From IMG/VR virus record IMGVR_UViG_3300027804_000001, positions 160,001 to 224,000 of that record: a DNA stretch of 64,000 nt, one strand, 5' to 3'. The notes under the pieces are model-generated. The model worked only from the letters and a program-made list of their open reading frames with translations, ran no database searches and was not told the DNA's origin. This stretch comes from a virus (lineage: Duplodnaviria; Caudoviricetes). Made by a program: the position numbers and the translations under genes. Positions 12,927 to 32,847 of this stretch are shown piece by piece (positions within the stretch are counted from its first letter, which is position 1; the number at the start of each line of letters is the position of its first letter).

Positions 12927-15900
12927 TTATTGTAATTTAGATTTTATTTCGTCTATTTGTTTTTGTTGTTCTTTTATTGCTTCGATTAATACTGCAATCA
13001 TCTTTTCGTATTTAACAGCCATATAACCGTTGTCTCGAGTTGTTACTATTTCAGGTAACACCTTTTGAACTTCTTGTGCAATCACACCGATGTCGTGACC
13101 TGAATTATCATGTATACCTTCCATTGGAATCCAATCAAACTCATAACCACCTATTGACATTATTTTATCTAATGAACCAACAATCGGTTCGATGTTAGTT
13201 TTTAATCTTTCATCAGAACTTGCGAATGCAATGATATCATTTGACGCCCTAATTAAACCGACAGTTGTTGATGTGGTCGCTCCACCCACAATCAATGCAC
13301 CTGTTACAGCGGTTGTTGATGAGTTCAATGTTGTACCACCATTAATAGTTAATCCTCCAAACGTTGGTGTTGCAGTTGTGTGAATATTTTGAGGAGTTGA
13401 TAACGTTACGCCACCTGTGTTAGCACTTACTGATACTTGGTTTGTTGTACCAGATATTGATGTTACACCCGCGTTGGTTAATGTTACTGAACTACCTAAT
13501 GCTACCGCACCTCCACCACTCATACCTGTTCCGGCTGTTACAGTTACAGATGAATTTGTTAATGAAGAATTACCAATGTTAGTTATTGTATTAGACGCTC
13601 CACTAATAGTTTTATTAGTTAATGTTTGAGCTGCACTAATTAAACCAATTTCAATCTCACTACCTAAAGGTCCTGCTATCCATCTGTCAGTTGTGGTATT
13701 CCATAATAACGAACCTGATACTAACGTTGATGCTGTCGCATCTCTTACAACCAAACCTGCGTTTGTTGCACCTGTACCATTAAGTTGTATAATGTTGTCA
13801 GCAATATTAACAGTTGTTGAGTTTACGGTTGTTTGTGTACCTGATACCACCAAGTTACCACCGATAGTTACTGTTGTACCATCATCGGTTATTGTTGAGT
13901 TACCTACTGTTGTTGCAGATGTGAATTTAACTAAAGTATTGTTTGTTCCTGATACTGAAACTGATGTACCTGATGTACCCGCGGTTCCACTACTACCTGA
14001 AGTTCCTGAACTACCAGAAGAACCTGAACTACCTGATGTTCCAGATGAACCACTAGAACCTGAACTACCAGAAGAACCTGAACTACCTGAAGTACCAGAT
14101 GTTCCTGAAGAACCGTTACTTCCTGATGAACCACTTGTTCCTGAACTACCAGAAGAACCTGAACTACCTGACGTTCCTGAACTACCAGAAGAACCTGAAC
14201 TACCTGAGGTACCCGAAGAACCGTTACTTCCTGATGAACCACTTGTTCCTGAACTACCAGAAGAACCTGAACTACCTGATGTTCCAGATGAACCGTTTGA
14301 ACCTGAACTACCTGATGTTCCAGATGAACCGTTTGAACCTGAACTACCTGATGTTCCAGATGAACCGCTAGAACCTGAACTACCTGAGGTACCAGATGAA
14401 CCACTAGAACCTGAACTACCTGAGGTACCACTTGATCCATTTGAACCTGAAGTACCACTTGATCCACTTGAACCCGATGTTCCTGAAGAACCGCTAGAAC
14501 CAGATGTACCACTAGTTCCTGATGAACCATTACTACCACTTGTTCCTGATGAACCCGATGAACCAGATGTTCCTGAAGAACCGGATGTTCCTGAAGAACC
14601 AGAGCTACCTGAGGTACCTGAAGTACCTGAACTACCAGATGTTCCTGAAGAACCCGATGAACCCGAACTACCAGATGAACCACTAGAACCCGATGTACCA
14701 GATGTTCCTGAAGAACCTGAAGTTCCTGAAGAACCTGAAGTTCCTGATGTACCACTACTACCATTTAAACCCGAAGTACCAGATGTACCCGATGAACCAG
14801 ATGGTGTAGATGCAATTATTAATAATATATTTTGATTATTCGAAAAACTTGAAGATCCACCATTACTTAATAACGTAACAGGTAATGTCCAATATGTTGT
14901 GTTATCAACCGGTGTACCAATTCTCCATCTTTGATAGTTAGTGTGACTTGTTTTGTCTTGTATAATAATTGTTGAACCTGATTGTAGAAATCCAACCAAT
15001 GAATCAATATTGTTATTTAAACCATCAATATCACTAACGTTAATTGAGGTTGATCCTGATTGTGTTACGTTATTCCATGAAATAAATCCACTACCTGGGT
15101 CACTACCATTTTGTGCGTTAGTCTTGGCTTGATAATTGAAGAATGAGTTTGATTGTCCTGAAGTACCACTAGAACCTGATGAACCAGAACTTCCTGAACT
15201 TCCTGATGTACCAGAACTACCTGATGTACCTGCGGTGCCACTAGAACCTGAGGTACCAGAAGTTCCACTACTTCCTGACGAACCTGATGTCCCCGAACTT
15301 CCTGAACTTCCTGATGTACCAGAACTACCTGATGTACCTGAAGTACCTGATGTTCCACTTGTACCTGAGGAACCAGACGTTCCTGATGATCCACTTGTAC
15401 CGGCCGTTCCTGATGTACCAGACGAACCAGAACTTCCCGATGAACCCGAAGTACCAGATGTACCGGATGATCCGCTCGAACCTGAAGTTCCTGAACTTCC
15501 CGATGAACCTGATGTACCAGATGTACCACTAGAACCCGATGTACCAGATGAACCACTTGAACCAGATGAACCACTTGAACCTGATGAACCACTTGAACCT
15601 GATGAACCTGATGTACCAGAAGTTCCTGATGAACCTGATGTACCAGAAGTTCCTGATGAACCTGATGTACCCGAACTACCACTTGTACCGGAAGTACCTG
15701 AACTACCTGAAGTACCAGATGTACCAGAAGTGGCGGCACTATATGAAGTACCATTTATTATTAAACTACCTGTAATATCAACAGAACCACTTACTTGTTG
15801 ATTTCCCCTAAAAAGGTTACTACCAGTAATTGCAAATTCAGTTGAATCTTTGCCGTCTAATAAATTCGAATTATCCGCGAATGATGCCGTTACTGCTCTT

Positions 15901-16034
15901 GATGCACTGACCGCGTTCGATGTTGTACCACTAATCGTTGCATTTATGGTTCCTAATACGGTAAGATCCTGTCTTACCTCCATTGAGCCGGATACTGACA
16001 GGGATCCCGTTATAAATGGTTCAAATATTTTCAT
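12927..16034 (-). CDS. Tail-fibre/spike-like protein with Gly-Ser/Thr collagen-like repeats and C-terminal peptidase S74 intramolecular chaperone
   Basis: SSDERLKTNI...IGVIAQEV...YMAVKYEKMIAVLIEAIKEQQ coiled-coil tail; two long G-X-S triplet tracts. Confidence 0.88.
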   Translation of the reverse strand: MKIFEPFITGSLSVSGSMEVRQDLTVLGTINATISGTTSNAVSASRAVTASFADNSNLLDGKDSTEFAITGSNLFRGNQQVSGSVDITGSLIINGTSYSAATSGTSGTSGSSGTSGTSGSSGTSGSSGTSGTSGSSGTSGTSGSSGSSGSSGSSGSSGSSGSSGTSGSSGTSGTSGSSGSSGTSGSSGSSGTSGTSGSSGSSGSSGTSGTAGTSGSSGTSGSSGTSGTSGTSGTSGSSGTSGSSGSSGTSGSSGSSGTSGTSGSSGTAGTSGSSGTSGSSGSSGSSGSSGTSGQSNSFFNYQAKTNAQNGSDPGSGFISWNNVTQSGSTSINVSDIDGLNNNIDSLVGFLQSGSTIIIQDKTSHTNYQRWRIGTPVDNTTYWTLPVTLLSNGGSSSFSNNQNILLIIASTPSGSSGTSGTSGLNGSSGTSGTSGSSGTSGSSGTSGTSGSSGSSGSSGSSGSSGTSGSSGTSGTSGSSGSSGTSGSSGTSGSSGSSGTSGSNGSSGTSGTSGSSGSSGTSGSSGSSGTSGSNGSSGTSGSSGSSGSSGTSGSSGSSGSSGTSGSSGSNGSSGTSGSSGSNGSSGTSGSSGSSGSSGTSGSSGSNGSSGTSGSSGSSGSSGTSGSSGSSGSSGTSGSSGSNGSSGTSGTSGSSGSSGSSGSSGSSGTSGSSGSSGSSGTSGSSGTAGTSGTSVSVSGTNNTLVKFTSATTVGNSTITDDGTTVTIGGNLVVSGTQTTVNSTTVNIADNIIQLNGTGATNAGLVVRDATASTLVSGSLLWNTTTDRWIAGPLGSEIEIGLISAAQTLTNKTISGASNTITNIGNSSLTNSSVTVTAGTGMSGGGAVALGSSVTLTNAGVTSISGTTNQVSVSANTGGVTLSTPQNIHTTATPTFGGLTINGGTTLNSSTTAVTGALIVGGATTSTTVGLIRASNDIIAFASSDERLKTNIEPIVGSLDKIMSIGGYEFDWIPMEGIHDNSGHDIGVIAQEVQKVLPEIVTTRDNGYMAVKYEKMIAVLIEAIKEQQKQIDEIKSKLQ
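13962..14801 (-). repeat. Coding (G-S/T-S)n triplet tract 2, about 280 codons
   Basis: Degenerate 9-nt periodic repeat such as GAACTACCA/GATGTACCT on plus strand. Confidence 0.95.
15156..15731 (-). repeat. Coding (G-S/T-S)n triplet tract 1, about 192 codons
   Basis: Degenerate 9-nt periodic repeat; translation TSGTSGSSG... Confidence 0.95.
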
Positions 16035-21609: not shown

Positions 21610-21638
21610 AATATAATGAAAAATACTATGAAAATCAA
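21610..21638 (-). promoter_or_regulatory. sigma70-like promoter, near-leaderless
   Basis: TTGATT-N17-TATATT, 8 nt before ATG 21601. Confidence 0.65.
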
Positions 21639-22207
21639 ATCAATTTCTTATCTTTTGTGAAATATTTTGAACCATATGGAAAGGGGATATCACTTTGCAA
21701 TTCGAATATATTCTTCAATTTCTCTATTCCATTTTCATAATACAAATGTTCATATGAAATGGTTGGCAAATCGTTTTGATTTGCAAAATCAATGAGGGTC
21801 TTTTTATTAAATTCTACCTCCTCTTTGAATTTATCATAATCTTCCTTAACAAACACTCTGTCCACATCTTTTTGTGTATAGTTATGATGATATCGATTCT
21901 CTTTACTTGAATACATGTGTGAGATGGTTTGTTCGTGTGTGTTTTCCCTATAAAGACAAAGAATCTTTGTACTTAATTTTAAAATCATACTGTAATTTTG
22001 TTCGGGATACCATAACTCTTTAATGAAATATTTTTTGTTTTCTAACCAGTCAAAGTCCTGTAAGGTTGTATCATTTGTGTAAATGTTAAAATCTGAATTA
22101 AATGGTTCATGAATTACAATGAATTCATTATTAAGTGATTGTTTTATCCAGTTCATTAGATTTTGACCACCAGTTCTATATTGTGCTATAATGGTATATA
22201 ATGTCAT
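21635..22207 (-). CDS. Sulfotransferase-like protein (Stf0-like)
   Basis: IIAQYRTGGQNL PAPS-loop, HEPFN, LYREN, ISYE. Confidence 0.6.
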   Translation of the reverse strand: MTLYTIIAQYRTGGQNLMNWIKQSLNNEFIVIHEPFNSDFNIYTNDTTLQDFDWLENKKYFIKELWYPEQNYSMILKLSTKILCLYRENTHEQTISHMYSSKENRYHHNYTQKDVDRVFVKEDYDKFKEEVEFNKKTLIDFANQNDLPTISYEHLYYENGIEKLKNIFELQSDIPFPYGSKYFTKDKKLI

Positions 22208-23274
22208 TATATCATAGTTTTTTTCATATCTAAAAACTCGTGTAGATTATGAAACACAAATGGGTCCTTGGCAACTTTATTAAATTCAATAAGAAAATCA
22301 TTATGATTAGGATGATTAACATCCCATACTTTTAAAAACTCAAATTGTTCATGTGTAAAAGTGCCCCAATTATTTATCTTACCATAAAAAACTTTTGTTT
22401 TCATACCAAAGATACTTTTCATTTGTTCTAAAAAAATACCCATTTCTTTATAGTTAGATTGTTGAACCACAAATGATGTTTTAACTTTTTTCATTTTAGG
22501 TATTGTGGCAATAAATTTAAGATTGGAAATTAAATTTTCCCATTCCCCATTTAATCTAGTTACATTCTCATATGTTTCTTTTGTACCCGCATCTATACTG
22601 ATTTCACATGTTAACACATAAGGATGAATATTTATCATTGATTCCCACATTTCTTTATTCCATAAACTTGCATTAGTATGTAGGTGTATATTTTTAAGTT
22701 TTGGGTACTTCTTAGGATTAAAGTTTCTAAGATAGTTTCTGTATGATACCGATGCAAATGGATCCGCGGTACCCGAACAATAAATTGTTTCTATTGAATT
22801 TGAGAAGGCTTCCTCCATTTCTTCGATTGTGGAATTAATTCTATTAATACCTTCCGAATTTGCAACAATCATTTTAACTCTACAAGATGGACATTTATAA
22901 TTACAAGTTCTATCAAAAGACATTTGTAATATTGTGGGACCATGTTCCATATGTGATTCCTTTTTTTCATAATGTTCTTTAATATAATCAGGTAAATTTT
23001 CAATTTTTTGTATGGGACCTGATGAGTCCATGTTGTAATTTAATAATTGAGCCAAAAATGGACATTGGGTTTTATCACAAAATCTATAGGAACCATCCAT
23101 CACCGATTCTCTAATTTCTATTGCCTCTTTACTATTCCATAAGTCTTTCAATGGAATTTTGTTTGGTAATTCCTTAGTCAACCAACTTGCACAACACATA
23201 AAATTTTTATTTTCATGTATTTCAACTGCTTGAAATGGAACAGTACAAACGTAATTCTTTAAATCAATATCCAT
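22207..23274 (-). CDS. Radical SAM protein with N-terminal SPASM/twitch-like Cys domain
   Basis: CNYKCPSC (CxxxCxxC), GTADPF, SIDAG; N-terminal CTVPF...MCC...C. Confidence 0.88.
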   Translation of the reverse strand: MDIDLKNYVCTVPFQAVEIHENKNFMCCASWLTKELPNKIPLKDLWNSKEAIEIRESVMDGSYRFCDKTQCPFLAQLLNYNMDSSGPIQKIENLPDYIKEHYEKKESHMEHGPTILQMSFDRTCNYKCPSCRVKMIVANSEGINRINSTIEEMEEAFSNSIETIYCSGTADPFASVSYRNYLRNFNPKKYPKLKNIHLHTNASLWNKEMWESMINIHPYVLTCEISIDAGTKETYENVTRLNGEWENLISNLKFIATIPKMKKVKTSFVVQQSNYKEMGIFLEQMKSIFGMKTKVFYGKINNWGTFTHEQFEFLKVWDVNHPNHNDFLIEFNKVAKDPFVFHNLHEFLDMKKTMI

Positions 23275-23277
23275 ATT

Positions 23278-23766
23278 TTATAATATAGTTCTTTTTTTAT
23301 TTAATCTCAATCTATTTTCTCCTTTGGGATTAAACAAATCTTCATAATATGTTATAGATATTCCTGTAATATTAGACAATTCTCTTAATTGTATGTCCCA
23401 ATTGATAATATCATTTTTACATTCTTCAAAAACGTTTATTGGGACTTCTTCATATACATATGGATTATTTGAATTGTATTTTTTTGTTTTAGAATAAAAA
23501 GTTTGATATGAGTGTGACTCTATACATTCCCCAATATTTTTTCTTGTTAAAAGAATTACCTCATCAAAATTTTTTAATAATTCTAAATTGTTTGGGTGGT
23601 GGGATACTATTGTTTTTACTACAATATTATCTTCGTCCTTTTTATATTGGATTCTATTTGTACCATCAAAGGGTTCAAACAAAGGTTTTAGATTTTTTTC
23701 CTTCGAAATTTTTTTTAGTAATGACGTAGATCCCGTTCTTGGTAAAGAAATTATGAGGATTCTCAT
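23278..23766 (-). CDS. Sulfotransferase-like protein (short)
   Basis: IISLPRTGSTSL, FEPF, LLTRKN, YYEDL. Confidence 0.65.
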   Translation of the reverse strand: MRILIISLPRTGSTSLLKKISKEKNLKPLFEPFDGTNRIQYKKDEDNIVVKTIVSHHPNNLELLKNFDEVILLTRKNIGECIESHSYQTFYSKTKKYNSNNPYVYEEVPINVFEECKNDIINWDIQLRELSNITGISITYYEDLFNPKGENRLRLNKKRTIL

Positions 23767-24317
23767 AATAATTTTTTCGTTTTATCTATTTTATAATATA
23801 CAAAGTTAGTATCATTCATCCATATGTTTAAAGCACATCTTAATCCAAAATTAACAGGCATAACACCATGATAAGTTTTGTTACCTTCGAAAGTTATACC
23901 CTCACCAATATTTAAATGTTGAATAACTTCTGAATCCTTTAGATTCACAAATTTGGGGGACAAACAAAAATCCCCATCCTCATAACCATCAGTCAACGAA
24001 ATAACAGTAGTATAGTTCGATGTTGAGTCTAAATGTAAATCCAAAAACCTACCCTCATAGTATCTTGTTAAACTAACATTTATGTTTGTTAAATTAAAAG
24101 AATTAAAATCAAACCAAAAGGAAATTGAACCCTGTTTATATAAACTATTTATATTATTTAATATCTTTTTTTTGAAGTCCTCATCATAAATCCTTCTACA
24201 ATCCCATGTTGTTTGTTCAAAATCATAATATGAAAAAGTTTCACCTTTTTCCATTGCAAAATCTATTATTGATTTACATTCTTCACGAGTAAAAAATTTA
24301 TTTATGGAATAATTCAT
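23763..24317 (-). CDS. 2OG-Fe(II) oxygenase (prolyl-4-hydroxylase-like)
   Basis: HLD, YEDGDF, YHGV, R-x-A-L-N. Confidence 0.85.
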   Translation of the reverse strand: MNYSINKFFTREECKSIIDFAMEKGETFSYYDFEQTTWDCRRIYDEDFKKKILNNINSLYKQGSISFWFDFNSFNLTNINVSLTRYYEGRFLDLHLDSTSNYTTVISLTDGYEDGDFCLSPKFVNLKDSEVIQHLNIGEGITFEGNKTYHGVMPVNFGLRCALNIWMNDTNFVYYKIDKTKKLL

Positions 24318-25135
24318 AATAATAATGAATAAGGTTCTTTTAAATTATAACCCAATAAATTGTTTTTTTGAATAAAATCGTAAATTTCTTCTGCAATTAA
24401 TTTATAACCATTTTTATTAGGATGTTTACCTAATTGAGATTCTGTAAAATGTGAGTTATCTTCCCATACATTTTTTCTGTTCGTTTCAATTAATAAATCT
24501 CTAAATGTTCTATTCTCAAATCCCCAATAATGTTTTCTATTTATTAGATTTGTTTTATCTATTTCTTGATTGATTGGATTTTTTATTAATGAATCAAAAG
24601 CATCACAAAACATATACCTTATTCCCATCTCATTGAACATATGTTGTAGGTAAAAAATATAATTTTGATTTATAATATTGTAATATGTGTCACAATAAAG
24701 ATTTGTTAGGTAGAATTCTTTGTAACTTAAACTCGCCCTATCAAATATTACGTTATTTTCTATTGTTTTATTAAAAATTGGTGTATAAATGTGTTTCTTA
24801 CTTTTATATCTTTCTCCCCAAAAATGCCACTCCCCCTTTGGGAAAAATGGAACATCATCCCTTAAAAAGGATGTCCACATTATTACAATAAAATCTCCTC
24901 GATTTATTTGATTGGATTTTAAACAATGTGAAACGGTCTCAAATATAATGTTATTTGATGCTCCTCCAATACCATTGTTAATGAATTCAACATTTAAAAT
25001 TTCTGAAAGATATCTTGGCCAACAAAACTCTTGTCTTATTTTAGTTCTTTCTTCTGGTGTATCATATTCGAGTTCTTTATTTGAATCCCCGCCAACACCT
25101 TCAGTCCAACTATCTCCAAATGTAAATAATCTCAT
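24314..25135 (-). CDS. SGNH-hydrolase-like protein
   Basis: TFGDSWTEG, GGASN, KHPNKNGY. Confidence 0.65.
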   Translation of the reverse strand: MRLFTFGDSWTEGVGGDSNKELEYDTPEERTKIRQEFCWPRYLSEILNVEFINNGIGGASNNIIFETVSHCLKSNQINRGDFIVIMWTSFLRDDVPFFPKGEWHFWGERYKSKKHIYTPIFNKTIENNVIFDRASLSYKEFYLTNLYCDTYYNIINQNYIFYLQHMFNEMGIRYMFCDAFDSLIKNPINQEIDKTNLINRKHYWGFENRTFRDLLIETNRKNVWEDNSHFTESQLGKHPNKNGYKLIAEEIYDFIQKNNLLGYNLKEPYSLLL

Positions 25136-25141
25136 TATGCA

Positions 25142-25279
25142 TTATTGCAAGTGTTTTGCTTTTATTGCATTAATTACCGATTGTACCGCAGTTGATATTT
25201 TTGTTTTAACACCATTTGAAATTGGTGCAATTGTTGGTTTTATAACTTGAGCGGGTCTTTCTGTTCTGATTGTTGACAT
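25142..25279 (-). CDS. Small hypothetical protein (45 aa), not in ORF track
   Basis: Translated by hand: MSTIRTERPAQVIKPTIAPISNGVKTKISTAVQSVINAIKAKHLQ; fills the gap, same strand as neighbours. Confidence 0.65.
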   Translation of the reverse strand: MSTIRTERPAQVIKPTIAPISNGVKTKISTAVQSVINAIKAKHLQ

Positions 25280-25306
25280 AACTTAAATATTTTTATAATT
25301 TTGATT

Positions 25307-26800
25307 TTATAATTTTGGTGGTAAACCTTGGTTACAACCCGAACAGCTGCTATCATAACAATAGTATCCACATGAATACCATGGACACCAACAACTATTA
25401 TGCATTACACTAAAAATACCATCACCTAAATCAACAAGAAATAAATCCGATGGCTCAAAGTCTAATCCATAAATCATCATACTTGAATGTTCCATTTCTA
25501 AATTGGTTATTTCAATAGTGGTTAACTCTTGTGTATTAGAGTCTGTTACTACTAATTTATCACCAATGTACATGTTATTTAATTTTTCAAATCTTGTCGA
25601 TAGTGATCCTGATTCTTCAATATAATACACACATGATGGAGAATCAACCCAAGTTTTACCATCTGAAGTAGTAATCCTAATAAAAATAGTATCAATTGAT
25701 GATGAAACAATCCCTTCTAATGAGGATGACATTTGTGTTAACGTTTCGTTACTTTGTGCTAAACTACCACTCCATCCCAACACGTCTAACTTACCTTGCT
25801 CAAAATAAGCAGCATGATTATCATTATAATCGATAAAGTCAATTGTTCTAATTAAACTTCCTAATTGTATGTTTGAAACATTTACTAATGACCCCGTATA
25901 ATCAATGATATTTGAATCAATATCAGTGTGGTAACTGTCCATTTTTTGGTTTATACCAACCTCTTTTGTGATATATTTTTGTCTAGTTTTTTGTGTTAAT
26001 TTTGTTGTATCATTTACAAATTCATTAAGACCAAAATTTAAAGGTACGACGGTTGATTGTCTGTATCCACCCAAATTTATAACGTCTAAATTACTACCAT
26101 AAACAATATCAATACTTCTAATTATTGAATATTTTCCATCCACCAAATTGTCTGTTGAAAATAAAAACTCCTGTAATAGGTAATTTTCAGATAAATTACC
26201 CTTCAACGAAGTTAATTGGGTTGCATCGTTTAATATATGTAATTCAGGGTATAGTGCTGTGTCATAATTAGGTATACGAGCTTTAATAACTATATTCGGG
26301 TTACTGAGATTTGAAAAGTCAACAGAATCTAAAGTGTCCATACCTAAATTATTTGAAACAAAGTAGGTCTTTGGAACGTAGGTACTACCACTCATTAAAT
26401 TAAAAAATCCAAATTTATCGGCACAGTATGAATCATCAATTAAGGCCGTTGTGTCAAAAGATTGTCTTAATATAAACTTATTAGGTGCGTCTTCAATATA
26501 AGGTACCGTTATAGAATTAGTTGGTACGGTATATTCAGAAAATTGTATGTTATTTTCTGAACATTTTTGTTGTAATTTTTGTTTAAAAACATAGGGTGAG
26601 TTTGAGGGAGAGTGTGAGTCATTCTCGGTGAAAATAAAATGAAATTCACTTATATTATTGTCCACTAACATCCCAAATAACGAATCGTAATCTAATAACT
26701 CTGCACCACTATTGTATATGGTTGTATTGGTATTTGTTTCTAATATTTTTACATCATCATTGTGTTCTAACAAATCAGTACCAAGAATAATTCCTTTCAT
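25307..26800 (-). CDS. Permuted ATP-grasp-like domain + Hint domain + Cys-rich C-terminal peptide
   Basis: GTDL...ILETNT, ADK...VPKT, VIKAR, LLQEF (ATP-grasp); IIDYTGSLVNVSNIQLGSLIRTID, MYIGDKL, IYGLDFEPSDLFLV...VMHN/S (Hint). Confidence 0.72.
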   Translation of the reverse strand: MKGIILGTDLLEHNDDVKILETNTNTTIYNSGAELLDYDSLFGMLVDNNISEFHFIFTENDSHSPSNSPYVFKQKLQQKCSENNIQFSEYTVPTNSITVPYIEDAPNKFILRQSFDTTALIDDSYCADKFGFFNLMSGSTYVPKTYFVSNNLGMDTLDSVDFSNLSNPNIVIKARIPNYDTALYPELHILNDATQLTSLKGNLSENYLLQEFLFSTDNLVDGKYSIIRSIDIVYGSNLDVINLGGYRQSTVVPLNFGLNEFVNDTTKLTQKTRQKYITKEVGINQKMDSYHTDIDSNIIDYTGSLVNVSNIQLGSLIRTIDFIDYNDNHAAYFEQGKLDVLGWSGSLAQSNETLTQMSSSLEGIVSSSIDTIFIRITTSDGKTWVDSPSCVYYIEESGSLSTRFEKLNNMYIGDKLVVTDSNTQELTTIEITNLEMEHSSMMIYGLDFEPSDLFLVDLGDGIFSVMHNSCWCPWYSCGYYCYDSSCSGCNQGLPPKL

Positions 26801-26827
26801 TTTTTTGTGTTAAGTTTTATATTAATA

Positions 26828-26856
26828 AATATACAATTTATTAAAAAGATAATCAA
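26828..26856 (-). promoter_or_regulatory. sigma70-like promoter for the ATP-grasp/Hint gene
   Basis: TTGATT-N17-TATATT, 27 nt upstream of ATG 26800; -35 flanked by AAGATAA/TTATCTT inverted repeat. Confidence 0.65.
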
Positions 26857-26896
26857 TGTTTATCTTAAAATAATATATATACGTATATACGTATGT

Positions 26897-27202
26897 TTAA
26901 ATTATTGTTTTATTATTTTTTTCAATTTGGGGTTCTAAAAGACCGTTGTCAGAATCGCCCCATTTTTTAAGTGGACAGGAATTGTAAATGTTAGAAAATA
27001 TTTTTTTATTTAATGGACACCCACATCTTAAACAAATTTCTGACCACCTATTATTTTTAATTAATGGTTTCTTATACTCACATGTTGAACAAATTGAATA
27101 CCTTTTTTCTGCTAGTTCTTTTTGTTCCTTAGTAGGATTTTTGGCACTTAACCAAGAGTTAAAGATTTCCTTATAGTTATATTCTATTCCGTTAATTTTC
27201 AT
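26897..27202 (-). CDS. Small Cys-rich (probable metal-binding) protein
   Basis: CSTC, CLRCGC, SCPLKKW (DUF6171-like pattern). Confidence 0.6.
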   Translation of the reverse strand: MKINGIEYNYKEIFNSWLSAKNPTKEQKELAEKRYSICSTCEYKKPLIKNNRWSEICLRCGCPLNKKIFSNIYNSCPLKKWGDSDNGLLEPQIEKNNKTII

Positions 27203-27990
27203 AATAAAGTCTTTGTTTCTTTAACAATATCGTAATAATCATAAATACCATCATAGGTATTTTTAAACTCTTCATTTAATTTTATGAAACAGTCCACATT
27301 TTTACTAGAATTGGTTTTTTCCAATTTAAAAGGTTTATTTATTTTAATACTAACCCATTTTTCTAATTCTTTTATATTGTCAAAATCAAACCAAATTATA
27401 TCTTTATTATGATGATGATAATTCGAGGTCGGCGTTAATAATATTTCAAAAATATTAAGAATATAGGAATCTATTTTTTTTTCTTTATCAAAAATAGATT
27501 CACCCACATCTATTCTCGTATCATTTAGTTGAACTCTTTTTTTTATAAAATTGTTTTTAATTAAAAAATCGTTTATCACATTTACTCTGCTTTCCTTACT
27601 CATTAAATCGTCGGTTGAGAAAAAAAATAATTCTTTTATATCGATATTTTTTAAATGTTCACTTACATAATGTGCTCCAATTCTTTGGGTATCGAAAATA
27701 ATTTGTTTAAATAATGAAAAAAACCTATCGTATTTATTTCTTTTTACACATAAAATTGGATAATTGTCCCCAAATTTTTTTTGTAAATCAAATAAACTTT
27801 CGTGTCCATGTTTTATTAAATCCATTAAGTTACTCTTTTCTATATTTTTTAAATCAATTTTATTATTGTTTTCATTTATAGAATTAGTTACAAATTTAAC
27901 ATTTAAATTATTTAATATACATGAATAATGAAAAGATGTGGATGCACATCTAGGTATTGATATATAAAAAAATTTATTGTCTACTAACAT
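27199..27990 (-). CDS. Sulfotransferase family 2-like protein
   Basis: FFYISIPRCASTS, KHGH, VKRNKYDRFFS, KTNSS. Confidence 0.65.
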   Translation of the reverse strand: MLVDNKFFYISIPRCASTSFHYSCILNNLNVKFVTNSINENNNKIDLKNIEKSNLMDLIKHGHESLFDLQKKFGDNYPILCVKRNKYDRFFSLFKQIIFDTQRIGAHYVSEHLKNIDIKELFFFSTDDLMSKESRVNVINDFLIKNNFIKKRVQLNDTRIDVGESIFDKEKKIDSYILNIFEILLTPTSNYHHHNKDIIWFDFDNIKELEKWVSIKINKPFKLEKTNSSKNVDCFIKLNEEFKNTYDGIYDYYDIVKETKTLL

Positions 27991-28610
27991 TATAGTAAAT
28001 TTTTGGGGCTTTTACTTTTGGCTGCAAAGTTGAAATTTATGATAAACCTATCACCATCCAATGGATAATTGGCGTGATGAGCTAGTCTACCGTCAAAAAC
28101 AAAACATCTTCCCATTTTTGGGGACACTCTTTTTAGTAGAGAATAAGAATCATAATTAACGTTATTAAAGTTTTCTTGGAAGGATTGAACGTTATCTCCA
28201 TTTACGTTTGTATAAAGACAGGTGTCACCTGTCGAATCGTTAACATAATAGACCACCGCAATGTGTTCATTTATCCTATCGTAATGTAATAAATGCATCG
28301 GATTGTGTTCAAAACTAATAGGTTGGGTCCAGTTAATTTTCCATCTATAATTTTGAACAAATTCTAAGTTTATTTTTTCCGAAATTCTAATTTGGAAATC
28401 ACTGATTAAATCTTTAATCTTATCATCCTTACAGTTATTTTGAGGGTGGACTTTGGCGGGGAATTTATGTGTACTTAATTTACCACCATAATATCCCGTA
28501 ACATTTTCCATGAATTCCCATTTTATGTTTTGATTTTTAACATATTCATATAAAATCTCTTGATTTTCTTTTGAAATTATATCGTCAAATATGTAATAAT
28601 TTTTAATCAT
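27990..28610 (-). CDS. 2OG-Fe(II) oxygenase-like protein
   Basis: HYD, VYYVNDSTGDT, PKMGRCFVFDG, HHA, RFIINFN. Confidence 0.8.
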   Translation of the reverse strand: MIKNYYIFDDIISKENQEILYEYVKNQNIKWEFMENVTGYYGGKLSTHKFPAKVHPQNNCKDDKIKDLISDFQIRISEKINLEFVQNYRWKINWTQPISFEHNPMHLLHYDRINEHIAVVYYVNDSTGDTCLYTNVNGDNVQSFQENFNNVNYDSYSLLKRVSPKMGRCFVFDGRLAHHANYPLDGDRFIINFNFAAKSKSPKNLL

Positions 28611-29260
28611 AATAAACTTTTCTCTTTTTTAATATAATCAAACCCAACATTACCGGCCACAACAATTCTATCAATAGTTGAATTCGGAGCATTATTTGGT
28701 GAGTGTGGCATATCGGCCTCCATTATTATTAAATCATCATTCTCAGGTCTAATCCAATATTCTTTTTTATTTTTTCCTCTAAAATATAACACACCATCTT
28801 CTCCATTCATTACATCCGGCATTTGAATGTAATAGACATAAGTATAATGAGGGGTAAATGATTTCATTTCTTTATTTATATCAGTATGAACGTGAAATTT
28901 GTCAACCCCTTTTAACTCTTCATGTTTGAATTGAATTTGAACCGGATTCGTTGATCTCACAACATTAACCCAAACCTCCGTATTGATTTTATTATACGTG
29001 GTATTTGTTTCTTCGTAAAGTTTTTTACAAGAATCTATCCCAATTTGTATTATTTCATCTAATTTTGTTTCAATTTTAACCTCACCTAAATAATTCAAAT
29101 TTTTATTCCATTCTTTTTTATACCCAAATCCATCTGTTTTAGTATCTGGTTGTGATTCAATAACGGAGTTTGCCAATTTTAATAATTCGGATTTGTCAGA
29201 TACTCGGTTTAATTTAGTTTTCCAAATATATGTGGTCTCGTCAAAATATAATTTTTCCAT
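28607..29260 (-). CDS. 2OG-Fe(II) oxygenase-like protein
   Basis: FHVH, YVYY, GVLYF, PHSP, RIVVAGN. Confidence 0.7.
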   Translation of the reverse strand: MEKLYFDETTYIWKTKLNRVSDKSELLKLANSVIESQPDTKTDGFGYKKEWNKNLNYLGEVKIETKLDEIIQIGIDSCKKLYEETNTTYNKINTEVWVNVVRSTNPVQIQFKHEELKGVDKFHVHTDINKEMKSFTPHYTYVYYIQMPDVMNGEDGVLYFRGKNKKEYWIRPENDDLIIMEADMPHSPNNAPNSTIDRIVVAGNVGFDYIKKEKSLL

Positions 29261-30510
29261 TAAATTATGTTTTTAAACTTACCTTTTTTATTTTTTTTGT
29301 AGACCATATCATAATTGTAAATCAGAAATGGTAATTTGTCTTCTGTCCAATATTCAAATTCAAAAGATTTCAATAAATCAGTGTCGTTTTTTAACGTTAA
29401 TTTATTATCATTATCCAAGATGGATTTAAGTTTTGTTGGTATGGGGGCATTATACGCATCTTTCCAAAATTCGGTATCTAATCTTTCATTAAGATAATGA
29501 TACCTAACAAACATCATATTTTGTTCATTTGTTTCGGCACAAATTTTATTAAACATGTCTCTATAGGAAGTATCAAATTCGAAATCAATTAGTCTTTTTA
29601 ATTGTATAATAGTAGACATTAATGATGTTGCTTCCAACGGTTCTAAAAAACCATAAGACAATCCGATTGAAATACTATTACCTATCCAACTCCTTTTAAA
29701 TGTACCAGCTTTGAAGTCAAAAACTTTTTGTATTGTTATTTCATGTCCTAAATGTTCTTCTACTTCTTTTTTTGCGTCCTCAACGGAGACGTATTTATCA
29801 TTAAATGCATATCCACACCCCAATCTATGTTGTAGTGGTATTTGAAACATCCATCCACAATTCATTGCACACAAGTATGTGTGAGTCAAATCTTTGTAAG
29901 AAATGGATTTCATCTGAGGTAAAAAGAAACCAAATGCTTTATTAACTAAAAGATATTCTGAATAATCAATCCAACTTTCTTTATGGACACCACTAATAAT
30001 CAATCTAGCAAAACCACTACAATCGAATACAAAATCTAAATTAATAATTTCTCCGTTTGAAAGTTCAATATTATTTATGATTTCATTTGTATTATTTATT
30101 TTAATAACTTCTCCGTCTATCCAATTTACTCCCCTTCCTAATGCAATATTTTTAAAATATTCTGAGACTTTCCTAGCATCAAAGTGAAATGCAGAATAAC
30201 TTCTTACATCGTTTGTTTGTTTATTGTTTTGATGAAATAAGTGTTCTGATTCACTTCCTTTGTGTGTCCAATTAATTAATTGAAGTCCATTTTTGGTTGT
30301 TGATCCCGTTTTTTCTAAAAATTCTTTTACGTTTATATCTAATAATTTAAGAAATAAACCGAAATTAGATGTACCACCTTCACCAGCACCTAATATCCCA
30401 ATTTTAGAACTTTCAATTAGAGTAACTTTTGTGTCTTTCCAAAACTTTTGTACACTTAACGCAGTTGCCCATCCCGCAGTCCCTCCTCCAATTATCACAA
30501 CATTTTTCAT
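29260..30510 (-). CDS. Flavin-dependent tryptophan-halogenase family protein
   Basis: GGGTAG, ILGAGEG, TKNGLQLINW, FDCSGF, GWMFQIPL, GFLEPLEATS. Confidence 0.88.
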   Translation of the reverse strand: MKNVVIIGGGTAGWATALSVQKFWKDTKVTLIESSKIGILGAGEGGTSNFGLFLKLLDINVKEFLEKTGSTTKNGLQLINWTHKGSESEHLFHQNNKQTNDVRSYSAFHFDARKVSEYFKNIALGRGVNWIDGEVIKINNTNEIINNIELSNGEIINLDFVFDCSGFARLIISGVHKESWIDYSEYLLVNKAFGFFLPQMKSISYKDLTHTYLCAMNCGWMFQIPLQHRLGCGYAFNDKYVSVEDAKKEVEEHLGHEITIQKVFDFKAGTFKRSWIGNSISIGLSYGFLEPLEATSLMSTIIQLKRLIDFEFDTSYRDMFNKICAETNEQNMMFVRYHYLNERLDTEFWKDAYNAPIPTKLKSILDNDNKLTLKNDTDLLKSFEFEYWTEDKLPFLIYNYDMVYKKNKKGKFKNII

Positions 30511-31076
30511 AATAAATTAATTTTTTTTATTGACGAAGGCCACACATTTATTGAATATCTTTTACCACTTACAATTGGTTCTACCGAATGTGTAATGTTG
30601 GATTCAAATATAAAAACACTTCCTTTTATTTTTGGTACGTTATATTCGGTTCCATCTAATATATATTTCACAAAACCACCATCATATTCGTCATTTAATT
30701 GAATAATAAAAGTTAATGTGGCACCATTTATTATCTCATGATTATCTTCGTGCCACTCTAAAAAATCATCTTTGTTATAACGATTAAATGAATATTTTAA
30801 AACTTTGACATATTCAATAGAATTAAGTGGTTTTAATCTATTACATGTGTTTATTATTTTTTTTGTTTGGTGTTCTAATATTGGGTCTAATAAAACCTCA
30901 TTGACAAAATAACAACCCATTCTTTTATTACCTTTATATTCCAAATTAGAATCGATTAGTTTACCTTTTACTATTTTAGATGACTTCATTTCTTTCAATG
31001 ACATCGACTCACCCAAATTTATTAGATAATCACACTCATCGTTGGTTAAAAAATTCTCAATCAATTTAGTGTACAT
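30507..31076 (-). CDS. 2OG-Fe(II) oxygenase (P4H-like)
   Basis: WHED, LNDEYDGG, THSV, GKRYS. Confidence 0.88.
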   Translation of the reverse strand: MYTKLIENFLTNDECDYLINLGESMSLKEMKSSKIVKGKLIDSNLEYKGNKRMGCYFVNEVLLDPILEHQTKKIINTCNRLKPLNSIEYVKVLKYSFNRYNKDDFLEWHEDNHEIINGATLTFIIQLNDEYDGGFVKYILDGTEYNVPKIKGSVFIFESNITHSVEPIVSGKRYSINVWPSSIKKINLL

Positions 31077-31078
31077 AA

Positions 31079-31627
31079 TTAGATTAAACTTTTAATTTTA
31101 TTTTCAATTTTTTGCAATCCAACCCAATTAACTATTGAATATCTGGTACCACTAATTATAGGTGTTATTCTATGTAATTTGTTTGATGGGAATAAAAATA
31201 AATTTCCAGCACCCTCTTCTAATTTTAAGTTTTCTTTATCTCCAACAATTTCAAAATTTCCACCGGTGTATTCGTCGTTTAATTGGATGACGGCTGAGTA
31301 GAACCTTTCGGGTCGGATTTCAATTGTTGAATCAACATGCCAATCATAATAACCACCAATTTCATATTGAGTGAATTGAAATTTACTTAAGTTGGTTACT
31401 GTATGTCCATTTATGGGCAATTTATCTCTAAGAACTTCTTTTAATTTTTCGTTTAAAAAACCTAAATTATCAATTCCTGCCACATTAGATTTTCTACCGT
31501 CTTTTGAATCTCCATAAACATCTGCCGGTTTTAATTCCAATTCGACTAAACATTTATTTAGAATGAAATTACATTCTTCTTTTGATAAAAAATTTTTTAT
31601 GGTAAAAATATTATTCATTTTTTCCAA
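31079..31627 (-). CDS. 2OG-Fe(II) oxygenase (PKHD/P4H-like)
   Basis: WHVD, LNDEYTGGNF, FPS, LHRI, GTRYS. Confidence 0.9.
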   Translation of the reverse strand: MEKMNNIFTIKNFLSKEECNFILNKCLVELELKPADVYGDSKDGRKSNVAGIDNLGFLNEKLKEVLRDKLPINGHTVTNLSKFQFTQYEIGGYYDWHVDSTIEIRPERFYSAVIQLNDEYTGGNFEIVGDKENLKLEEGAGNLFLFPSNKLHRITPIISGTRYSIVNWVGLQKIENKIKSLI

Positions 31628-32050: not shown

Positions 32051-32413
32051 TTATAAATTTGTGGTACCGTCTGACTTTATCTCTCCTTTTCTAATTTTAG
32101 TACCACTTATTTCTGCAATTTCTGTTGGTGGTTCGTGATAAACGACATCATAACCAACTCCCCTACCATAATTTACCGATTCAATATCGGGTATAATACT
32201 GATAAAAATTTTATTAGAGTTTTCAACAAAAAAGGGTTCCTGTGATAATTCCATTAAAATGTCATGTGCCTTCTTAGGGTTATTCTCATCTTGTGGTACA
32301 TCTCTAATTGCCACCCACACATTTTTTCCTTTATCCAATTGTTGGCGGATTAACCATTCGTGGCCTTTATGCCAATTTTGCCATCTTCCGATGTATAATG
32401 CGTATTTTTTCAT
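32051..32413 (-). CDS. Minimal HIGH-family nucleotidyltransferase (cytidyltransferase-like; possible ATP sulfurylase)
   Basis: GRWQNWHKGH, ISGTKIR; coupled to APS kinase. Confidence 0.75.
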   Translation of the reverse strand: MKKYALYIGRWQNWHKGHEWLIRQQLDKGKNVWVAIRDVPQDENNPKKAHDILMELSQEPFFVENSNKIFISIIPDIESVNYGRGVGYDVVYHEPPTEIAEISGTKIRKGEIKSDGTTNL

Positions 32414-32847
32414 ATATCTATAAATTTAATTAAATCGATGAAGGATTCGTCATCGCGTTTGTTAGTGGTATTAATATCTACAAAATTTTCTGTGGGGGGG
32501 TCGTAATTTGTCACATGAAAGTTTTCTCTTCCTCTAATTTCTGTTGTGTGAACATAAATCTCAATTACGTCATTCATTTTTTTGAACTCGTCTCTTTGAT
32601 CTTTATATGGAGAAACCAAGGATACTACAACCGAATAACCCTTTTCATTCATAAAACGAGCAATATCTTGTGCCCTTTCTATGTTTCGTCTTCTACCTGT
32701 TTCTGAATAATCTTTATTTTGAAAGATGTCTCTTAGGTCGTCACCATCAATATGAATAACCTTCTCTGTGTTACTCAAATATGACAATAAATGTTTTGCT
32801 AATGTCGTTTTACCCGCTGCGGGTTGTCCTGTAAACCAATAAATCAT
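32410..32847 (-). CDS. cysC: Adenylyl-sulfate kinase
   Basis: WFTGQPAAGKTT P-loop, IDGDDLR, VSPYKDQR, YDPP. Confidence 0.9.
   Translation of the reverse strand: MIYWFTGQPAAGKTTLAKHLLSYLSNTEKVIHIDGDDLRDIFQNKDYSETGRRRNIERAQDIARFMNEKGYSVVVSLVSPYKDQRDEFKKMNDVIEIYVHTTEIRGRENFHVTNYDPPTENFVDINTTNKRDDESFIDLIKFIDI

Follow-up and report, generated by a model that had tools for sequence, protein, structure and literature searches.

At the C-terminal end of a Hint domain, cyclisation of the terminal asparagine cuts the bond that follows this residue, a reaction that needs neither the nucleophile at position 1 nor block B of the domain. Among the ATP-grasp enzymes, GspS, YgiC/YjfC, the glutathione synthetases and Cp1B couple a carboxylate to an amine in an amide bond, via an acyl-phosphate, and the graspetide ligases, which belong to another ATP-grasp clade, cross-link a conserved Asp/Glu to a Thr, Ser or Lys of a separate leader-bearing precursor. 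In the passage of PMC12568646 that cites Pederick et al. (2023), YgiC and YjfC are described as peptide-spermidine ligases, and the Tetrahymena bacterial intein-like (BIL) domain BIL2 needs no ATP to join a C-terminus to the epsilon-amine of a lysine (PMC8616854). A cluster of carbamoyltransferases, halogenase and 2-oxoglutarate (2OG)-Fe(II) dioxygenases in jumbo cyanophages such as S-SSM6a has been interpreted as a secondary-metabolite/polysaccharide system (Iyer et al., 2021; PMC7824862). The subject here is a single gene on a 64,000-nucleotide stretch of tailed phage DNA (positions 160,001 to 224,000 of IMG/VR record IMGVR_UViG_3300027804_000001; hereafter the window), the 497-amino acid (aa) product of which joins an ATP-grasp amide ligase, a degenerate Hint domain and a Cys-rich tail, and could be the self-processing precursor of a small disulfide-type peptide.

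The open reading frame (ORF), first picked out by a reading of the window from its letters and translations (the sequence-only reading), is real, as the number of homologues excludes a chance ORF. These homologues form 658 clusters at 90% identity (E<=0.01), nearly all of ~495 aa and none of them named, while an exhaustive phmmer search gives 267 family clusters at 50% identity that reach down to ~22% identity. At least 325 stretches in IMG/VR carry a copy of the gene; there, single distant proteins as queries gave no match, but the alignment of the distant group did. In the ESM Atlas the neighbours of the fusion protein are 96-100% viral (Uroviricota), a tblastn search of the gene against 50,697 deposited phage records retrieved no homologue and the scanned GTDB species genomes hold no relative; as judged from the databases searched, the family is found only in virus-classified sequence. 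The whole protein and a profile of its ligase domain retrieved nothing significant in Pfam, PHROGs, NCBIfam and sequence searches of the PDB. The source phage is uncultured and marine, with a GC content of ~31%, and is considered a jumbo phage because an identical copy of a neighbouring small protein sits on a 333.6-kb contig. The window corresponds to the reverse strand of bases 178-64177 in an IMG/VR virus record of 180,831 bases, for which CheckV estimates a completeness of 54%.

The three-part layout of ATP-grasp domain, Hint domain and Cys-rich tail holds in the AlphaFold2 (AF2) model, in structural matches and among homologues. Built from 121 diverse sequences, the model reaches a predicted local distance difference test score (pLDDT) of 90.6 and a predicted template modelling score of 0.86, with two domains and values below 50 confined to residues 472-497; 24 close homologues had given a pLDDT of 51.8. 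In VIA comparisons, residues 1-280 are colinear with Escherichia coli YgiC+ADP (7uka, chain 94-378; Z 10.0) and residues 1-281 with GspS (2io7, residues 310-608; Z 9.0), such that the ATP-grasp call, made by eye, is correct. Eukaryotic glutathione and homoglutathione synthetases (Z 8.3-8.7) and the fungal ligase Cp1B (Z 7.7) come next, TTLL tubulin ligases are weaker matches (Z 5.6-6.4), and Foldseek searches with the domain return E values of 1e-5 to 7e-5. Almost all near-invariant positions of the body lie in the ligase domain, as counted over 104 representatives whose alignment columns average 16% identity: D9 (103 of 104), E21 (104), N23 (104), R112 (104), K173 (102) and R228 (103), together with T24, D104, D116, D122 and Y125, are kept in 97-104 of the sequences, and A119, P168 and [YF]212, the latter within a Q-E-[YF] motif, are near-invariant as well. 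Residues of Mg/ATP type (Asp, Glu-x-Asn, Lys, Arg) are thus present, by a residue-level mapping onto GspS that is inferred rather than computed, and the spacing of D9, E21 and N23 is one we take to equal that of the GspS Mg-binding triad, whose residue numbers are assumed here. From the sequence record, this conservation pattern is that of an active enzyme, and the domain is best described as a catalytically intact amide ligase of GspS/YgiC type. The assignment of the folds and of the family is hardly open to doubt.

The second domain had likewise been called by eye, and Foldseek, VIA and profile-profile comparison agree on a Hint fold. Residues 288-468 of the model superimpose on the Clostridium thermocellum BIL domain 2lwy with a Z of 15.6 and a root-mean-square deviation of 2.0 A over 136 of 138 residues, followed by Tetrahymena BIL2 (Z 15.3), the Hedgehog autoprocessing domain 1at0 (Z 15.0) and many mini-inteins (Z 12-15). 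Foldseek gives E values of 4e-8 to 1e-5 against inteins, BIL2 and Hedgehog, an hmmsearch of the PDB with the Hint profile retrieves the KlbA intein (7.4e-8) and BIL2 (2.5e-5), and hhalign of this profile with the canonical Hint domains of longer relatives (98.4% probability, E 8.5e-15) sets His467-Asn468 against their terminal His-Asn. No Pfam Hint model, PT-HINT included, matches residues 286-468; PT-HINT (PF07591) does match the extra Hint domains of the long relatives (2.6e-21). The motifs on which the sequence-only reading had relied are all present, namely the block-A-like segment (298-321), RITTSDGKTW... (375-390), MYIGDKL (410-416), IYGLDFEPSDLFLV (443-456) and SVMHN (464-468). Since the structural matches always stop at residues 468-471, Asn468 is the equivalent of the terminal asparagine of inteins.

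His467 is kept in 99 and Asn468 in 103 of the 104 representatives, and within the Hint domain these two positions alone are conserved above 90% across the family, such that the proposed pairing of an invariant His-Asn with a Cys-rich tail that is hypervariable over the family is found on comparison. The suspected loss of Cys1 and of the block-B TxxH is equally evident from the columns: residue 1 of inteins aligns to His291, where the representatives read H32/K18/G13/I8, T377 of block B is kept in 48 and the position of the block-B histidine reads D52/N20/G18. In block F, 66 representatives have Asp and 21 have His at position 452, and the residue after Asn468, Ser in the window protein, is variable (A25, P12, V9, Y9 and others). 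Because the N-terminal nucleophile and the block-B histidine are absent, only C-terminal cleavage is chemically possible; by analogy with intein chemistry, the Hint domain probably cuts after Asn468 and frees the tail. A true intein or mobile element can be rejected, as the domain lacks a nucleophile and is a fixed part of the family.

The tail, which follows directly on His467-Asn468 and begins with Ser469, contains 6 Cys, 2 Trp, 4 Tyr, 3 Pro, 1 Lys and 1 Asp (3271.7 Da in the reduced form), and no Glu or Thr. Tails were compared in four sets, 72 plain tails, 14 bounded by a Hint or Peptidase_S74 domain, 55 unique tails of a distant lineage and 44 unique tails of close relatives. Over the family, the segment behind His-Asn has neither conserved sequence nor conserved length (3-84 aa, median 39), and its composition is dominated by Cys (16.5% vs 0.5% in the body), followed by Gly, Ser, Tyr, Pro and Asn, with His at 0.3%. 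In the window lineage, on the other hand, the tail conforms to a framework, x-C-W-C-P-W-x-[YFW]-C-G-x-[YWF]-C-x4-C-x2-C...K-[LIVA], with six Cys and two invariant Trp, and the pairwise identity among close relatives is 0.59 for the tail vs 0.66 for the body; hypervariability as initially suggested thus applies to the wider family, but not to the close subfamily.

Two rules nevertheless hold across lineages. The number of cysteines is even in 71 of the 72 plain tails (0, 4, 6, 8, 10 or 12), in 14 of 14 bounded and in 55 of 55 distant tails. Lysine is the sole residue found in every tail (72/72, 55/55 and 44/44), those of only 3-7 aa included, and there is exactly one Lys in 52 of the 72 plain and 41 of the 55 distant tails, a pattern that length-matched segments of the body almost never reproduce. 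The position of this Lys is penultimate in the window lineage (44/44), but in mid-tail within C-x-K in the distant lineage (49/55). From the even number of Cys and the near absence of His, disulfides rather than zinc sites are expected; of the disulfide- or metal-rich peptide originally envisaged, the first alternative is thereby favoured over the second, and a His/Cys zinc finger is disfavoured by a His content of 0.3% and Cys counts of 6, 8 and 10. Once released, the peptide is likely to be disulfide-bonded, and a tail of disulfide type would have its role outside the reducing cytoplasm. With the tail as sole query, the ESM Atlas yielded only matches at chance level. The comparison with graspetides drawn in the sequence-only reading fails on both components, as the ligase is of GspS/YgiC/glutathione-synthetase rather than RimK/MdnC type and the tail lacks a conserved Asp/Glu (the acidic column reads S35/D5 in close relatives); the graspetide reading is accordingly rejected.

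Release of the tail gains further backing from relatives with a longer C-terminus, in which the Cys segment is bracketed by a second Hint or a Peptidase_S74 domain. Of 36 long forms, 18 match Intein_splicing or PT-HINT (best 2.6e-21). In about a third of the longer relatives, one or two extra canonical Hint domains sit after the Cys segment or directly after His-Asn; they carry Cys1, TxxHP and a terminal VHN and are followed by 1-6 residues, usually Lys-rich. Eight of the 36 carry the self-cleaving Peptidase_S74 chaperone domain, which starts with S-D-x3-K, can be aligned with its counterpart in the fibre of the window (E 1e-6), is absent from the window protein and stands after the tail in relatives that are ~70 aa longer. 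Two unrelated self-removing modules C-terminal of the Cys segment fit a need to free the ends of this segment. In five relatives of 734-766 aa (P0258, P0261, P0265, P0266, P0272), two tandem canonical mini-Hints follow directly on the degenerate Hint, with 2-10 residues between the Hint domains, 1-2 residues (usually Lys) after the last and no Cys-rich cargo. As far as these sequences tell, the Cys-rich part is dispensable; the ligase, the His-Asn of the Hint domain and a lysine are not.

These observations also bear on the possibility that the protein is an uncleaved amide ligase acting on a glycan, a metabolite or a virion protein, with the Hint domain as a spacer, the His-Asn retained for fold stability and the tail as a fixed docking module stabilised by metal or disulfides. 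Such an enzyme would be at home in the ~50-kb glycan/modification island beside a Ser/Thr-rich collagen-like fibre in which the gene is located, it would agree with the interpretation of related cyanophage clusters as polysaccharide or secondary-metabolite systems (PMC7824862), and it would account for cargo-less relatives that retain the ligase. We nevertheless regard it as unlikely: stability alone hardly explains why His-Asn is the sole Hint feature conserved above 90%, the tails are nearly devoid of His and have an even number of Cys, and a fixed docking site is difficult to reconcile with the complete replacement of the tail sequence between lineages and with extra self-cleaving domains directly after the tail.

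The features of the locus are collected in Table 1.

Table 1. Coordinates in the window of the fusion gene, its parts and the neighbouring features, with the evidence on which each row is based.
Feature	Position	Strand	Basis
Fusion gene, 497-aa ATP-grasp / Hint / Cys-peptide	25307..26800	(-)	ORF and translation, homologues, AF2 model
ATP-grasp amide-ligase domain, residues 1-285, GspS/YgiC/eukaryotic glutathione-synthetase topology	25946..26800	(-)	Structural matches, conservation
Hint domain, residues 286-468, without N-terminal nucleophile or block-B TxxH	25397..25945	(-)	Structure and profile matches
His467-Asn468, predicted scissile Hint end (Asn cyclisation)	25397..25402	(-)	Conservation, alignment to canonical Hints
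29-aa Cys/aromatic-rich tail, residues 469-497, predicted released peptide	25310..25396	(-)	Framework conservation, even Cys number
Lys496, sole tail Lys	25313..25315	(-)	Penultimate Lys in 44/44 close relatives
45-aa conserved basic small protein, ends K-x-K-H-L-x, predicted fusion-protein subunit	25142..25279	(-)	Locus counts, complex prediction
101-aa Cys-rich protein, CxxC...CxxCxC...C	26897..27202	(-)	tblastn, 77/80 close and 79/80 distant loci
Upstream tagged enzyme block: sulfotransferase-like, three 2OG-Fe(II) oxygenases, flavin-dependent (Trp) halogenase, 2OG oxygenases	27199..31627	(-)	Pfam, C-termini
Downstream tagged block: SGNH hydrolase, 2OG oxygenase, two sulfotransferase-like, twitch-type radical S-adenosylmethionine (SAM)	21635..25135	(-)	Pfam, NCBIfam, C-termini
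Flavin-dependent (Trp) halogenase	29260-30510	(-)	Nearest cultured homologue in Pelagibacter phage HTVC008M, 34% identity
Twitch-domain-like radical SAM	22207-23274	(-)	NF033640 2.9e-12, below cut-off
Adenosine 5'-phosphosulfate (APS) kinase	32410-32847	(-)	NCBIfam 4.5e-19
Three small proteins labelled sulfotransferase-like, no family match	21635-22207, 23278-23766, 27199-27990	(-)	
1035-aa fibre, Gly-Ser-Ser / Gly-Thr-Ser collagen-type repeats without proline, Peptidase_S74 end	12927-16034	(-)	Pfam 1.9e-65, 2.7e-18

Enzyme, protease and core peptide had been supposed to be one polypeptide. They are indeed fused, but this picture is incomplete, as a conserved 45-aa protein encoded immediately downstream is predicted to bind it and further constant neighbours exist. 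This small protein is present in 62 of 63 analysable IMG/VR loci (46 with a strict K-x-K-H-L, 16 with close variants recognised by eye) and, by tblastn, in 78 of 80 loci, and persists in relatives of 23-44% identity. Complex prediction with the fusion body gives an interaction prediction score from aligned errors (ipSAE) of 0.79 vs 0.00 for the best control. In the calibration, which is rough since own alignments were used, 58 of the 80 solved complexes attained this mark, as did 2 of the 110 mismatched pairs. The predicted contacts involve even residues of strands 2-13 and 16-23, odd residues of 223-234 and residues 372-436 of the Hint domain, and according to this model the 45-aa protein would be a structural subunit that bridges both domains rather than a substrate. 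In the distant lineage the same place is taken by an ORF of 24-30 aa ending in I-G-x-L-I-[VI]-x-x-N-S (77/80 loci, e.g. L124:11528-11614); homology of the two small proteins is unsupported (profile probability 1.7%), and they are positional analogues only.

A conserved body, a Hint domain and a variable C-terminus with a small gene downstream also recall polymorphic toxins, in which the Hint domain would free a variable antimicrobial peptide and the small gene would provide immunity; PT-HINT, RHS and Tox-GHH proteins are indeed among the Foldseek and ESM Atlas neighbours. In a variant of this thought, prompted by the S74 domains of some relatives and of the window's own fibre, the product would be a trimeric receptor-binding fibre with a Cys-rich tip. 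The chances of either are slim. The body is enzymatic, its active site being conserved, the fusion protein is devoid of fibre-like repeats and of any domain for secretion or trafficking, and its Hint domain is not matched by Pfam PT-HINT. The small gene, moreover, is conserved instead of co-varying with the tail and its predicted contacts lie on the body (6-436) and not on the tail; as a conserved protein predicted to bind the enzyme body, it is disfavoured as an immunity protein.

The window is almost wholly one co-directional glycan/modification island of roughly 50 kb, with sugar-nucleotide, glycosyltransferase, methyltransferase, 2OG-Fe(II) oxygenase, radical SAM, carbamoyltransferase, APS kinase and halogenase genes. 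Neighbourhoods were compared over 80 close and 80 distant loci (L013-L172, the distant ones being L093-L172), and the loci of both lineages share 2OG oxygenases, sulfotransferase-like proteins, a twitch radical SAM protein, an SGNH hydrolase, an APS kinase and a carbamoyltransferase. The most constant neighbour of the family is a Cys-rich protein of ~95-101 aa with six invariant Cys, for which Pfam and NCBIfam hold no family and which bears the C-terminal tag described below. Homologues of the radical SAM protein occur in 17 of 80 and 41 of 80 related loci, and the halogenase in 60 of 80 loci of the lineage with two invariant tail Trp and in 0 of 80 of the lineage in which 35 of 55 tails lack Trp. 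The APS kinase and the three sulfotransferase-like proteins together would make a phage-encoded sulfation route. The repeats of the fibre account for a local rise in GC to 43%, and the fibre is a likely O-glycosylation target of the island.

Unrelated enzymes around the fusion gene share a short hydrophobic C-terminal tag, typically K-x-[ST]-L-[LI] and in its wider form K-x-[ST]-[LIMF]-[LIFVY]-COOH. In this genome, 12 of 19 ORFs of the block around the gene (21635-31627) end in [LIMV][LI] vs 13 of 194 elsewhere. Counted over unique same-strand ORFs, an ending in [LIMF][LIFVY] is found in 66% (535/811) near close and 42% (467/1109) near distant relatives, against a background of 10% (20/194) elsewhere in the window's genome. 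In cultured HTVC008M, the homologous 2OG oxygenases and halogenase lack the tag, and the search of phage records gave no match to the fusion gene. Going by these counts, the tag travels with the ligase-Hint gene. An origin as a by-product of start/stop overlap is rejected, since the tag is also present where genes do not overlap and since an ATGA overlap constrains the final sense codon at its third base only and has no hold on the preceding residue.

The co-occurrence of tag and ligase raises the possibility of a protein-tagging platform, in which the ligase would join the tagged C-terminal carboxylates of the neighbours to the tail Lys and the Hint domain would free the conjugate, such that each tagged protein gains a branched C-terminal peptide in an ATP-driven analogue of BIL-mediated ubiquitin-like conjugation. 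TTLL enzymes, which are ligases of protein tails, are among the structural matches, one Lys is universal even in the shortest tails and after terminal Hint domains, and the tag is enriched solely around the fusion gene. The chemistry has parallels in the ligation of peptide C-terminal carboxylates to amines by GspS and YgiC/YjfC, as PMC12568646 relates in citing Pederick (2023), and in the isopeptide between a Lys epsilon-amine and a C-terminus made by Tetrahymena BIL2 (PMC8616854). With one turnover per protein of 56 kDa and a purely inferential basis, such a platform is distinctly improbable.

In the reading favoured here, the fusion protein would be a self-processing precursor, specific to phages, in which ligase and peptide are combined, and would act as the large subunit beside the 45-aa protein. 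The ligase would probably form one amide bond on the tethered tail, most likely at the single Lys or at the C-terminal carboxylate, and the flanking tagged enzymes would probably act on the same tethered substrate. Asn468 would then most likely cyclise to a succinimide and break the Asn468-Ser469 bond, and the freed 29-aa peptide would fold by three disulfides once outside the reducing cytoplasm. Taken as a whole, this package, in which a disulfide-type peptide is made on its own ligase and releases itself, falls slightly short of an even chance. The action of the ligase on the tethered tail, at Lys or the C-terminus, is proposed only tentatively. Still more speculative is a new ribosomal-peptide/protein-modification system, in which a whole enzyme serves as the 'leader' and offers a tethered single-Lys disulfide-type peptide to tailoring enzymes recruited by, or ligated through, the C-terminal tag, with one Lys amide and subsequent Asn cyclisation in a single turnover and no leader peptidase.

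Several observations weigh against this self-releasing precursor. With a pLDDT below 50, the tail is set by the model in neither active site, and the predicted contact face of the 45-aa protein is opposite to D9/E21/N23/R228 and thus gives no clue to the substrate. The variable residue after Asn468, Pro in some members, is atypical for inteins; Asn-Pro bonds can, however, cleave by the same Asn-cyclisation chemistry. S74 domains typically occur in trimeric virion fibres, and a structural role is thereby hinted at. The cargo-less relatives still keep the ligase and the tagged neighbours, and therefore the system must do more than supply the Cys peptide. The correlation between the halogenase and tail Trp, drawn from the gene content of two lineages only, is suggestive. 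Finally, the targets of the neighbouring enzymes may instead be glycans on the fibre close by, in line with what has been proposed for related clusters of cyanophages (PMC7824862).

With respect to its significance, release of the tail would imply a widespread marine-phage route, with no leader peptidase, to peptides that are disulfide-rich and may also be halogenated, hydroxylated or sulfated. If true, enzyme, protease and core in one chain with tag-recruited enzymes would constitute a new logic of ribosomal natural products, give degenerate, C-terminal-only Hint domains a use, provide the first substrate hypothesis for an orphan GspS/YgiC-like clade and perhaps reveal the targets of the clusters of halogenase, 2OG oxygenases and carbamoyltransferase long noted in marine myoviruses. 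The single invariant Lys and the even-Cys rule are directly testable handles. A full-text literature search for ATP-grasp together with Hint in phages returned nothing relevant; within that search the ligase-Hint-peptide layout is without a description, and it may represent a new route of peptide modification.

Among known systems, the flanking genes belong to the same enzyme families as in clusters of S-SSM6a type, but the description in PMC7824862 does not include a ligase-Hint-peptide gene, and the tag is seen on the window enzymes. With graspetides the locus shares the genetic coupling of an ATP-grasp enzyme to a ribosomal peptide; here, however, enzyme and tail form one chain, no acidic residue of the tail is conserved, and a Hint domain instead of a leader peptidase would release it. 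From inteins the protein differs by the absence of a Cys/Ser/Thr at position 1 and of TxxH; the terminal His-Asn is present, and at +1, where the window protein has Ser, a nucleophile is not conserved across the family. In Tetrahymena BUBL, a BIL domain is located between ubiquitin-like domains, and BIL2 (6y75/6tmm) is among the best structure and sequence matches; the long relatives similarly set a Cys-rich cargo with a universal Lys between two Hint domains, whereas the window protein has one Hint domain without a thioester-forming Cys1, a cargo that is not ubiquitin-like and a fused ATP-dependent ligase.

The closest parallels concern the two domains separately. GspS, YgiC/YjfC, the eukaryotic glutathione synthetases and Cp1B are the best colinear structure matches of the ligase and share the conserved D...E-x-N, Lys and Arg, yet there is no similarity at the sequence level, the window ligase is fused to a Hint domain and a peptide, and ~90 N-terminal residues of YgiC are missing, which the 45-aa subunit may replace in trans. 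BIL and PT-HINT domains have the same fold, a terminal His-Asn and a non-nucleophilic +1 residue, and directly precede a variable C-terminal cargo, for which release by Asn cyclisation is assumed. In contrast, the window Hint lacks Cys/Ser at position 1, TxxH and a Pfam Hint match, it is preceded by an ATP-grasp ligase and not by a secretion, RHS or filament region, and its cargo is a Cys-rich peptide of 20-80 aa rather than a toxin domain. Though it falls in no sequence-defined family, the fusion protein would by analogy work like PT-HINT/BIL cargo release coupled to a ligase of GspS/YgiC type.

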